From: a virus
Taxonomy: Duplodnaviria; Heunggongvirae; Uroviricota; Caudoviricetes
IMG/VR virus record: IMGVR_UViG_2703718804_000003
Direction: 5' to 3' (one strand)
DNA: 30,285 nt
Position numbers: made by a program. Positions 24,001-27,000 of this stretch are shown here, one piece after another. How positions within the stretch are numbered: position 1 is the stretch's first letter; the number at the start of each line of letters is the position of its first letter.

Positions 24001-27000
24001 TCCGGAGCCGGAAGGCATCGCGGGTGAGGGGAGTGCTTCAGATAGCGGTGACCCCACACCTGACAGCGACATGATGATGTAAGCATGCGTCAGGGACCAT
24101 CGGTGTGTGCCGGTGGTCTTTTTTATTGTTGTGAGCTTCCGGATTGCGGGAGACGGGGTATGTACCAGATGGAAAAAATAACAACAGGTGTGTCATACAC
24201 CACGTCAGCGGTGGGAACGGGCTACTGGTTCCTGCAGTTGCTGGACAGGGTTTCCCCGTCTCAGTGGGCGGCAATAGGCGTGCTGGGGAGTCTGCTGTTT
24301 GGTCTGCTGACATATCTGACGAACCTGTATTTCAAGATTAAAGAAGACCGTCGTAAGGCGGCACGGTGAGAGTAGGTGATGAACCATGAAGAAATGAATC
24401 AGCGCTTCAGTCGTCTGGAAAATGAAATTGCTGAACTGAATAAAAAACTGTCGGTGCTGATGCCTTCTGAAGATGCAAACAAACGCCGCGATGAGCAGTT
24501 TGCGGCGTTTTACGATGATTGCATCAAAATTGCTCGCAGGACCTTTGCGAATATTTTGCAGGAAAAGTTTTTACCGACCGCATTGTCAGAAAAGTACTCC
24601 ATTACGGTTAAAAGTGCCGGAGAGGAAGGCAATAAACGTTATTTTATTGCGTCTGCACCGGATAAAGACCAGGAATGGGGGGGTAATCGGCCATCTTTTA
24701 TTGTGACAAGCGATGACTGGAATATCACGATCAGTGAAGATGGAAAAGTAACACCAGCATCGCACCAGCACAGTGAGGCGCTCATTGAATTTGCCATTGA
24801 TTACATGAAGAACAATAAAAAGCAGGGGCTGATGCAGCGCATTGGTCGCTGCATGGGATATCTGCAGCTGGCGGCAGAGATTGAAGCACTTGCCTGTGGT
24901 GCTGACAAGGATGCAGTTGTGCGGGAGGCTCTTCTTCGTGAGTTTGACAACCCGCCCTTTAAAAAAGTGCCGGCTTACTGGTTTCATCCCGGACTGACTT
25001 ATCTGAAAGGGCGGTTTGGGGAGAGGTTATCTGAACTTAAGCGATAGTTTATTGAAGAGCCGTTTTTTTTGCAGACAGGCAAAGTTTTTATCCCATGAAC
25101 AACCCGGGTGACTGAGTTCGTCATTAAACCATTTGTTAATGTTGTGCTTCAGATGCTGAAGCATCAATGGTGTTAATGTGGTGATAATGATATCCAGAGT
25201 TTCTGTTGAAAGCATGCCGTAAGGCTCTGAGAGAATGGCCTGAGTGGCCTCGCTGTTATCCGGGATAAGCGCTTTTAATTCTGATTTAACATTTTCGTTC
25301 ATTATCTGCAAAAACTCTTTGCGTAAATTGTTGTCATTATTATTCATTTATAAAATCTCATTTGTTGTTACCGGGTGTGTCCTGGTGCCTGTTGATTATA
25401 TTCATCGTGAGTACCGGATTATATATCTGACATATCCAGGAATAAGAGAGCTATAAATCCTGATAAATATCCATGAACGCAAAAATCAAATACGGCCTGT
25501 CAGCTGCCGTTCTGGCGCTGATTGCCGCAGGGGCTTCTGCGCCTGAAATCCTCGACCAATTTCTGGATGAAAAGGAAGGCAACCACACCACGGCATACCG
25601 TGATGGTGCGGGTATCTGGACCATCTGCCGAGGTGCCATCATGGTGGATGGTAAGCCTGTGATTCCTGGCATGAAGCTGTCGAAGGAAAAATGCGACCGG
25701 GTTAACGCTATCGAACGGGATAAGGCGCTGGCATGGGTGGAGAAAAACATCAAAGTGCCACTGACTGAACCCCAGAAAGCGGGTATTGCGTCATTCTGTC
25801 CTTACAACATTGGCCCCGGTAAGTGTTTCCCGTCGACGTTTTATAAACGAATTAATGCAGGCGATCGCAGAGGAGCGTGTGAAGCGATTCGCTGGTGGAT
25901 TAAGGATGGTGGCAGAGACTGCCGTATCCGCTCAAATAACTGTTATGGTCAGGTATCCCGTCGTGACCAGGAGAGCGCGCTGGCGTGCTGGGGTATCGAC
26001 AGATAAGCAGAATATTTTGCTGAAAAATGACGTTGCTCAACGCGGGCGGATAACACGAAATCCTGCGAACTGGCAAAACCTAAGTGAATAAAAGTAAAAA
26101 CCCCGTTTGTTGGCAGCAAGCGGGGTTTTGTGTTTCCTGACTTCGGAAAAGTCAAAGGAGAAAGTGTGTTTGATTTTAGCAAACTGATTCGGGAGATTCG
26201 AGTGATGGCTGAAAAATTATCCACCTGGAAGTTCATCCTTATCTGGCTGGTGTTTGTGATTATGGCCTCCGGTTATTTCATCGGTCAGATACGCTGGTGG
26301 TGAAATGAACCGCGTTCTGTGTGTGGTCATCATTGCCCTGCTGGTGGCCTGTGGTGCGCTTAGTCTGGGGCTGAATCATTACCGCGATAACGCCATCACC
26401 TACAAAGCGCAGCGCGATAAAAAAGCCAGAGAGCTGGAGCTGGCAAACGCAACCATTACTGATATGCAGGTGCGCCAGCGCGATGTTGCTGCGCTCGATG
26501 CAAAATACTCGAGGGAATTAGCCGATGCGAGAGCTGAAAATGAAACTCTGCGTGCTGATGTTGCCGCTGGTCGTAAGCGCCTGCGGATCAACGCCACCTG
26601 CTCCGGTACCGTGCGTGAAGCCACCGGCACCTCCGGCGTGGATAATGCAACCGGCCCCCGACTGGCAGACACCGCTGAACGGGATTATTTCATCCTCAGA
26701 GAACGGTTGATGACAATGCAGAAGCAGCTGGAAGGGGCACAGGACTATATCCGCACTCAGTGCCTGAACTAAGTTTTGCTGATGCGCCGTATCGTCGCTG
26801 TATTCCTGCATTAACAGAGACCGCAGCCCGACAGGGAGACTCCTCTGCGCGAGTGTGCGGGGATAATCAAAAACGATACACACCGGGGTTTACCGCGTTA
26901 ACGGAGCGCGGCGTTGTCCCCTCATGGTCGCTGGTCCGGTGCGATGGTGGAAGAAACCGGACGATGTGTTACCTCGCAAGCTCTGTTATGTCATGTGTCT

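Follow-up and report, generated by a model that had tools for sequence, protein, structure and literature searches.

Two genes between holin and endolysin of a Shiga toxin 1a prophage as probable occupants of a variable cargo slot in P21/Qin-type lysis cassettes

Introduction

What does it mean when two genes lie between the holin gene S and the endolysin gene R of a Shiga toxin (Stx) prophage? The stretch of DNA analyzed here, 30,285 nucleotides (nt) of a tailed phage filed as IMG/VR record IMGVR_UViG_2703718804_000003 and referred to below as the window, carries in this interval a forward gene for a protein of 222 amino acids (aa) and a convergent, minus-strand gene for a protein of 106 aa. 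An earlier note, made from the DNA alone, took S and R to be normally adjacent and read the two genes as a recently acquired insertion, perhaps a functional module, that splits the lysis cassette; for the minus-strand gene it suggested independent expression and a candidate function in lysogenic conversion or exclusion.

The bovine isolate Escherichia coli ARS-C301 carries in its chromosome an Stx1a prophage with 100% identity to the window, and RefSeq annotates in it the same four genes from holin to lysozyme. Comparison of this interval with those of its relatives indicates that the P21/Qin-type cassettes of Escherichia lambdoid prophages probably have a variable cargo slot of long standing here, which the window shows in its occupied state. 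The two genes are ordinary mosaic filling of that slot, neither a recent two-gene insertion nor core lysis machinery.

Results

Occupancy of the S-R slot

The cassette of the window has the two features by which a P21/Qin-type pinholin and endolysin cassette is recognized. Its holin is of class II (P21 S) and shows the dual-start motif MYQMEK, and its lysozyme, which begins with a Gly/Ala-rich hydrophobic segment of predicted signal-anchor-release (SAR) type, is followed by embedded Rz/Rz1 genes; the SAR behavior is a prediction from the sequence. Both open reading frames (ORFs) that the earlier note had placed between S and R were found, and their 3' ends share 21 nt (25027..25047, TTATCTGAACTTAAGCGATAG).

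To what extent is the interval filled elsewhere? From IMG/VR, 80 contigs were picked solely for a holin at least 99% identical to that of the window. In this redundant sample (many E. coli isolates) of near-identical holins, 71 contigs hold both S and R, which are adjacent (gap of 7-10 nt) in 13 and separated by 364-1322 nt, in more than ten length classes, in 58. From phage records, 60 evenly spaced entries were drawn out of 366 that match S through R; among the 51 with both genes the two are adjacent in 37, mostly Stx2a phages of the 933W/Sakai kind, and the gap is filled in 14. Normal adjacency of holin and endolysin genes thus describes the sampled phage records, but not the IMG/VR contigs, nor the Qin prophage of E. 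coli K-12 or phage 86.

The first gene of the filled slot is a member of the YdfR family in 58 of 58 cases, and alignment of the junctions places its start codon 3-5 nt past the S stop, at the position that R takes in adjacent cassettes. What follows varies. The commonest cargo, with 18 loci and gaps of 364-424 nt, consists of a DUF1327 domain only, the type of K-12 Qin ydfR. Nine loci (gap about 600 nt) encode a linker with a C-terminal domain, ten (937-1035 nt) encode DUF1327 with the C-terminal domain, one of them also with the linker, and up to 21 (697-1322 nt) hold a forward gene together with a convergent small gene. The convergent small genes belong to at least five families (phrog_1853, 2411, 18136, 10490 and 2572). 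These five, all of them PHROG families of unknown function, encode soluble proteins of 86-106 aa at GC contents of 0.39-0.45.

The same arrangement emerges when the holin is not used for selection. Loci found through the 222-aa protein again have a P21-type holin (77-99% identity) on one side of its gene and R (43-97%) on the other, and the S/gene/R layout is annotated in the Stx2 phages 86 and Stx2_12E129 and, with a different small gene, in PhiR12_1. Relative to Stx phages of the 933W and VT2-Sakai type, the window has 1103 nt of extra DNA between S and R; in the named isolates VT2-Sakai, Min27 and P27, S and R are about 94% identical and directly adjacent. Because these isolates lack both genes, neither gene is needed for lysis as such. 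Measured against those phages, the two-gene insertion is there; as a description of the cassette type it misleads, the slot being usually occupied. The comparison of holin-to-endolysin intervals across relatives, which the earlier note had proposed as a check, finds filled gaps to be common and alternative cargoes many.

Three simpler groupings of the cargo were tried and dropped. One divergent superfamily for all slot small proteins was ruled out, four families giving hhalign probabilities below 1% against phrog_1853. A 'DUF1823' label on the small protein of PhiR12_1 was not reproduced by Pfam. A tie between the 'mid' segment of the 222-aa protein and the small gene was also ruled out, since two loci (L087 and L088) have the segment and no small gene. 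As a separate observation, a phrog_10490 slot protein (minus strand, 2516..2866 of contig L008) has a weak PADLOC match to PDC-S51 (E=1.6e-5, 60 residues).

The forward gene

The ATG of the 222-aa gene lies 9 nt past the holin stop, where R starts in adjacent cassettes. Because this leaves no room for a promoter, the gene must ride on the Q-dependent late transcript. The protein has no match in Pfam (E<=0.1), NCBIfam or PADLOC (PADLOC-DB v2, E<=0.1), in keeping with the earlier impression that neither product has a recognizable domain; yet it matches phrog_1085, a family of unknown function, with E=3.9e-100 over profile positions 117-296 only.

The part of phrog_1085 that is absent from the protein is the N-terminal DUF1327 domain (PF07041, YdfR). 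PF07041 itself has no match in it (E<=0.1), and in alignments the first ~100-115 residues of long family members are missing. About half of the homologs do have DUF1327; these proteins measure 259-333 aa and bear the annotation 'YdfR family'. To PF07041-containing proteins the 222-aa protein is 57-84% identical over 66-95% of its length. Homology to the linker and the C-terminal domain and the position directly after the holin place it in the extended YdfR family. Judged by its sequence, the 222-aa protein is a DUF1327-less isoform of this modular family (PHROG 1085), whose members combine an optional DUF1327, a helical linker, a variable middle and a conserved C-terminal domain. Homologs that lack DUF1327 and start MNHEEMNQRF are many and conserved, so that the short form is a stable isoform and not a wreck.

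Three parts of the protein can be delimited (Table 1). The N-terminal helical module, in which AlphaFold2 (AF2) predicts helices at residues 3-26 and 31-64 with low confidence, is shared with the C-terminal part of proteins that join DUF1327 to a coiled coil, such as the 169-aa protein of PhiR12_1. The conserved C-terminal domain contains the motifs GRCMGYLQ.AAEIEA and FDNPPFK..P..W..PG..YL; Escherichia and Salmonella also have proteins in which it is joined to a DUF1327-like domain. A short C-terminal extension then creates the overlap with the small gene. This overlap is peculiar to the sublineage of the window; in relatives the forward protein ends in ...YLKGRI*, 9-11 nt before the stop of the small gene.

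An exhaustive hidden Markov model (HMM) search of 1.84 billion representative proteins returned 44 clusters with the 222-aa family only, and no fusion to a known domain except DUF1327-like ones. The distant clusters, where named, are from Salmonella enterica, and in them a DUF1327-like N-terminus is present again. Among species-representative genomes, a scan yielded three records with the family, all Escherichia or Shigella; PHROG 1085 and PHROG 1853 are almost confined to these genera, and Salmonella relatives are rare. The 222-aa protein has no transmembrane (TM) segment or signal peptide (maximum 19-residue Kyte-Doolittle value 0.92). Sequence-profile searches of solved structures with the window proteins gave nothing below E=0.06.

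The minus-strand gene

Residues 1-104 of the 106-aa protein match the full-length profile of phrog_1853 (E=2.2e-44), also a family of unknown function, and Pfam, NCBIfam and PADLOC (PADLOC-DB v2, E<=0.1) give no match; nor does PADLOC match homologs of either window protein. A profile search with the protein yielded 43 clusters, of which all with a source name are E. coli, and one more homolog comes from a viral contig of Salmonella-like type, L089. The homologs in L089 and at locus L136 match phrog_1853 as well. AF2 models the protein as a five-helix bundle with a predicted local distance difference test (pLDDT) score of 89.9 and a predicted template modeling (pTM) score of 0.81, and a Foldseek search of BFVD with this model gave nothing at E<=0.001; neither a solved nor a viral fold matches it. 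The protein has no TM segment (maximum 19-residue Kyte-Doolittle value 1.23) and a near-neutral isoelectric point, and is predicted to be a soluble five-helix bundle.

Pairwise Nei-Gojobori ratios of nonsynonymous to synonymous divergence (dN/dS) are 0.24-0.45 for the 222-aa gene and 0.27-0.33 for homologs of the 106-aa gene among themselves. Because the ratios fall within 0.24-0.45 and the small protein is modeled with confidence, both ORFs are genuine genes, with protein-level conservation in divergent relatives.

Co-occurrence and age

Are the two genes a pair or independent neighbors? In about 50 of 80 loci collected through the small protein, the homolog is intact, but the forward gene is reduced to a 10-codon remnant or absent. 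The remnant, MNKQYELVVK* (10 codons of a DUF1327 gene), lies just past the holin stop and marks a deletion of the forward gene that left the small gene intact (L136 and ~45 similar loci). Of 5426 complete E. coli genomes, 628 carry the small-gene allele associated with it at 95% identity or more, among them O103:H2 12009 and, in prophage Sp4 (ECs_1097), O157:H7 Sakai; a literature search for ECs1097 found nothing. The forward gene, for its part, occurs without a convergent gene in 37 of the 58 occupied slots, and the C-terminal domain without any small gene in at least 19 of the 58. The two genes are thus frequent neighbors in one cargo zone, not an obligate pair, and the obligate co-occurrence of a toxin-antitoxin or effector-immunity module is not seen, each gene being frequently alone. 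The proposal that they act as a module is weakly favored by a Salmonella-like contig (L089) in which both families are convergent neighbors, with another holin downstream of them and a hicAB pair alongside; their common occurrence apart tells against it.

Two of these loci have further peculiarities. In L089 (1885..2795 and 4292..4597), the hicA/hicB-like toxin-antitoxin pair lies directly upstream of the pair formed by a long YdfR gene and the small gene. The long gene (DUF1327-like plus C-terminal domain) is split by a frameshift, the small protein is 50% identical to that of the window, and a different holin of 101 aa stands between the small gene and a SAR endolysin. In Sakai Sp4, the lysis cassette (holin ECs_1100, ECs_1097, endolysin ECs_1096 and spanins; 34146..36376 of L174) is inverted with respect to the rest of the prophage and lies next to pchA and copies of IS629 and ISEc8.

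The shift in composition on which the earlier note had based a recent acquisition is real: GC is 0.465 in the 222-aa gene and 0.383 in the 106-aa gene, versus 0.52-0.56 in holin, endolysin, Rz and nanS-p. The recency is not upheld. All small-gene homologs have 38-41% GC, including one in a Salmonella-like phage; AT-richness is therefore a family trait and no sign of recent arrival. Alleles of the small gene in the same slot range down to 45-50% aa identity, and synonymous divergence (dS) between the window gene and such homologs is saturated. At ≥80% coverage the pair itself turns up in 27 complete genomes of several serotypes; 24 of them match at 97.8% identity or more, the remaining three at lower identity or coverage. 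The prophages that hold it in O113:H21 and O111:H8 have other flanking sequences and no stx genes next to it. This evidence says that the presence of the pair in the slot is in all probability old, not a recent acquisition.

Spacer and flanking genes

The minus-strand gene opposes late transcription in its orientation, and the AT-rich spacer between its start and R (Table 1) is a candidate promoter region. A perfect minus-strand TATAAT in this spacer is kept in window-type and O157-type alleles, and independent expression of the gene is plausible. Rfam finds nothing in the holin-endolysin interval, and the RNA fold of the spacer is no better than that of shuffled sequences (z=0.49). A scan detected no terminator between the 222-aa and 106-aa genes, whose overlapping ends leave no room for one.

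The spacer is also the leader of R. Comparison of 40 distinct sequences upstream of R reveals a conserved block of ~45 nt that contains a GATAAAT direct repeat and is kept in nearly all occupied slots irrespective of cargo. No obvious Shine-Dalgarno (SD) sequence precedes R in these slots; in adjacent cassettes its GGAGAG is located within the end of S. In other alleles, the region that separates R from the small gene's start holds a perfect hairpin, GCCAGTG-N5-CACTGGC, with TTTT after it on the minus strand. The hairpin is present in many relatives, such as contigs L001 (about 4390..4420), L002, L166 and the Salmonella-like L089, is absent in the window, and looks like a minus-strand terminator or operator upstream of the small gene.

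Table 1. Features of the holin-endolysin interval and its surroundings in the window.
Feature	Coordinates	Strand	Basis and remarks
stx1AB			start of the local gene order, ahead of nanS-p
nanS-p esterase	21516..23480		after stx1AB
DUF1378 gene	23617..23796		between nanS-p and the DUF826 gene
DUF826 gene	23837..24082		just ahead of the holin gene
Class II holin S, P21 type (pinholin family), 69 aa	24160..24369	+	PF04971, E=6.8e-33 (ORF 24157..24369); RefSeq
222-aa gene	24379..25047 (ORF open from 24376)	+	ORF list; 222 aa counted from ATG
N-terminal helical coiled-coil-like module, aa 1-62	24379..24564	+	alignment; DNA matches at query 61-194
Conserved C-terminal domain, aa 101-213	24679..25017	+	invariant columns; HMM search
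9-aa C-terminal extension FGERLSELKR*	25018..25047	+	alignments; sublineage-specific, creates the 21-nt overlap
106-aa gene	25027..25347	-	ORF list; convergent with the late operon
Divergent spacer, 36% GC, 125 nt	25348..25472		candidate promoter region of the minus-strand gene and leader of R
TATAAT, perfect	25423..25418	-	~70 nt upstream of the small gene's ATG; read from sequence, upstream alignment
Conserved block before R, ACATATCCAGG...GATAAATCCTGATAAATATCC	25430..25472	+	upstream-of-R comparison, 40 distinct sequences
Lysozyme R (endolysin), SAR-type N-terminus MNAKIKYGLSAAVLALIAAGASA	25473..26006	+	PF00959, E=4e-24; RefSeq rrrQ
Rz	26305..26772		downstream of the lysozyme; Rz1-like embedded ORF 26525..26710
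TonB/Bor-like gene, then terminase			downstream of Rz/Rz1

A few observations concern the flanking genes. The window holin stops at TGA (…AAR*, 24367..24375 region), two codons ahead of the TAG of its relatives (…AARGE*, 71 aa). This 69-aa allele was encountered only in the source strain; other genomes with both cargo genes have a holin gene of 216 nt. Two strong terminator-like hairpins with T-runs lie on the plus strand within the late operon, one just ahead of S (24092..24121, 13 pairs) and one just after R (26097..26129, 15 pairs), and Q-modified polymerase would need to read through both. In the spacer between nanS-p and the DUF1378 gene, Rfam reports a weak match to Esr41, a small RNA of enterohemorrhagic E. 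coli (23482..23558, minus strand; 30.9 bits against a gathering score of 102, E=0.003).

Discussion

The essQ-ydfR-rrrQ genes of K-12 Qin form the same type of cassette, with a class II holin, an extra gene for a cytoplasmic protein and a SAR-type lysozyme. The 222-aa protein falls in the family of YdfR (PHROG 1085), where its homology is with the linker and C-terminal extension of the long members. However, most of the window protein consists of a C-terminal domain that is missing from K-12 YdfR (103 aa), the window protein lacks DUF1327, and Qin has no convergent small gene. Phage 86 (orf5/orf6; AB255436 / NC_008464) and the Stx2a phage Stx2_12E129 share the identical order of S, YdfR-family gene, convergent ~104-aa gene and R, with small proteins 46-50% and large proteins, over the shared part, 75-86% identical to those of the window. 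They differ in that their two genes are separated by 9-11 nt and do not overlap, that phage 86 orf5 (268 aa) keeps DUF1327, and that a hairpin with a minus-strand T-run upstream of the small gene takes the place of the TATAAT region of the window. In both phages the two genes are annotated as hypothetical.

Morons are extra, compositionally distinct genes that lie among conserved late genes and are absent in close relatives. Lambdoid examples, said to include cases in HK97 and HK022 as well as lambda bor and lom, were reportedly treated by Juhala et al. in 2000. Lambda bor runs antisense to the late operon, and the prophage expresses it. The 106-aa gene resembles these genes in its composition (GC 0.38 versus 0.52-0.56), its place between conserved late genes, its absence in close relatives and, as with bor, its antisense orientation. 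Bor and Lom, in contrast, are envelope proteins, whereas the window product is predicted to be cytoplasmic and its promoter is a candidate. Extra non-enzymatic proteins in or near SAR-endolysin cassettes are also represented by the Mu gp25 releasin (DUF2730; PMC9239132) and P1 LydB. Releasin, however, is tethered to the membrane and lysis requires it, whereas the window proteins are free of TM segments, show no similarity to DUF2730 and, judging by their relatives, are dispensable. The S-R slot further resembles phage cargo hotspots (2022, PMC9122126), fixed sites between conserved genes with alternative, unrelated cargo, but its cargo is very small (single genes of 86-106 aa plus the YdfR family) and includes a single defense match, the weak one to PDC-S51.

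Several other accounts of the interval must be weighed against that of a slot for accessory cargo. One or both proteins might be accessory lysis regulators that tune pinholin triggering or SAR-endolysin release and thereby set the timing of lysis and Stx release, by analogy to Mu gp25 releasin, P1 LydB and P2 LysA/B/C. The YdfR-family gene is immediately after or before the holin at all 58 holin-anchored and all nine other loci, which span divergent holin and endolysin alleles and Salmonella-like phages; the forward gene is translationally juxtaposed to S; occupied slots provide R with a conserved leader of its own that has no SD sequence; cytoplasmic accessory factors of SAR endolysins exist (Mu gp25; PMC9239132); and a screen, taken here from its citation in PMC13232886, ties ydfR to envelope integrity. 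We nevertheless regard such regulators as rather unlikely. Functional phages with ~94% identical S and R carry neither gene, and releasin, antiholins and LydB act at the membrane, whereas neither window protein has a TM segment or signal peptide. Pfam yields no match to DUF2730 or to holin/antiholin families by which a releasin or antiholin would be recognized, and the many unrelated small genes in the slot suit cargo better than a dedicated regulator. A functional two-component module (effector and immunity, toxin-antitoxin-like, or a two-gene anti-phage defense), in which the prophage-expressed small protein would neutralize or partner the late-expressed 222-aa protein, appears improbable to us. 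The same two families are convergent neighbors by hicAB in the Salmonella-like contig, upstream of its different holin, and neighbors in phage 86 and Stx2_12E129 at 45-54% (small) and 75-86% (large) identity to the window proteins, and the 3' overlap in the window permits antisense coupling; but each gene is commonly alone (about 50 of 80 loci and 628 genomes; the C-terminal domain alone in at least 19 of 58 slots), neither protein has a PADLOC match, and a convergent orientation is unusual for toxin-antitoxin operons.

Minus-strand transcription might itself be the function, the convergent or antisense RNA insulating R and the late genes from leaky pR' read-through in the lysogen. SAR endolysins are hazardous when leakily expressed, the genes converge with a 21-nt overlap and no terminator in between, and five unrelated small genes have the same orientation and position, which suggests that both matter. 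Purifying selection on the protein and its confident fold, however, argue that selection acts on the product itself; a convergent gene is missing from 37 of the 58 occupied slots and from all adjacent cassettes, and a strict promoter scan is negative. We hold this explanation to be even less probable than a module. Least probable by far is a reading of the interval as junk or decaying DNA, acquired recently and without selective value. A GC content below that of the neighbors, absence from many related phages and forward-gene remnants at other loci speak for it, but the idea is largely refuted by two intact ORFs with dN/dS below 0.5, by a pair kept at 97.8% identity or more in 24 complete genomes of several serotypes and in at least two non-Stx prophage backgrounds, and by families that have stayed in the same slot over deep divergence.

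If the interval is an occupied cargo slot, the forward gene takes the place of R immediately after S. Its transcription would depend entirely on the Q-dependent late operon and its translation on coupling to S, which would yield a soluble cytoplasmic protein late in infection. As to its role, our best guess, and one that we hold loosely, is a late accessory factor or modulator of host RNA decay. The one experimental lead comes from K-12 YdfR (DUF1327), whose residues 1-72 bind the N-terminal catalytic half of RNase E (residues 1-597) in two-hybrid and co-purification experiments (PMC13232886), and YdfR may bind RNA (PMC13232886, 2026); the C-terminal domain is often fused to DUF1327, and a shared process is possible. 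A non-essential modulator of lysis timing, argued for by the strict association of the family with lysis cassettes, ranks slightly lower, and the rest of the probability goes to other roles.

The minus-strand gene would be a moron of the lambda bor type, with its own promoter in the AT-rich spacer, read against late transcription and made in the lysogen, and its product would benefit the host or the prophage, for instance as a regulator or in competing with other phages. That it is a cytoplasmic moron of this kind, expressed in the lysogen to the benefit of the host, is the most favored of our functional suggestions and still a tentative one. Where the forward gene has been lost by deletion, the minus-strand gene persists; among the window proteins and their homologs, no PADLOC match supports a specific role for it. 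A bolder possibility, which we consider unlikely though worth stating, is that the S-R junction is an undescribed hypervariable hotspot like the defense hotspots of P2 and P4, with at least five unrelated, AT-rich, prophage-expressed families of ~90-106 aa that oppose late transcription, that the 106-aa protein is a new cytoplasmic factor of the lysogen, and that the YdfR-family protein beside it links the cassette to RNase E. If so, the 106-aa protein might take part in competition among phages or keep the SAR endolysin from firing by accident.

A number of points weigh against parts of this picture. The IMG/VR sample is redundant and selected by its holin, and its percentages are therefore not population estimates. 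Of the two structure predictions that the earlier note had suggested, the 106-aa protein gave a confident five-helix bundle without a fold match, while the 222-aa model reaches a pLDDT of 44 (26-sequence alignment) and therefore lends no structural support to any function. The minus-strand TATAAT has no recognizable -35 element, and a strict sigma-70 consensus scan detects no promoter for the gene. Overproduction of YdfR has little effect on the transcriptome (PMC13232886), and because the window protein lacks the DUF1327 that carries the RNase E contact, the RNA-decay idea follows domain-fusion logic alone. The constant position of the YdfR family next to lysis genes, including those of Salmonella-like phages with another holin, fits a lysis-linked role equally well.

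A comparative study of 279 Stx phages (Pinto et al. 2021, PMC8136144) described the lysis cassette as conserved and contiguous, with its genes close together, and did not note the slot; we found no description of an S-R cargo slot in the searchable literature. The cargo genes have been annotated as hypothetical in phages and genomes since 2006, and their families are already catalogued. The locus is accessory cargo built from known, uncharacterized families, with a modest residual interest that lies in the diversity of the slot and in an orphan fold. A false impression is thereby removed: the cassette of the window is not unusually 'split' but shows the common mosaic state of its type. Homologs of the small gene are present in more than 600 complete E. 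coli genomes, O157:H7 included. The two cargo genes, in turn, are located in the transcript that delivers Shiga toxin together with the lysis proteins, and any effect that they had on late mRNA stability or on lysis timing would bear on the release of the toxin.

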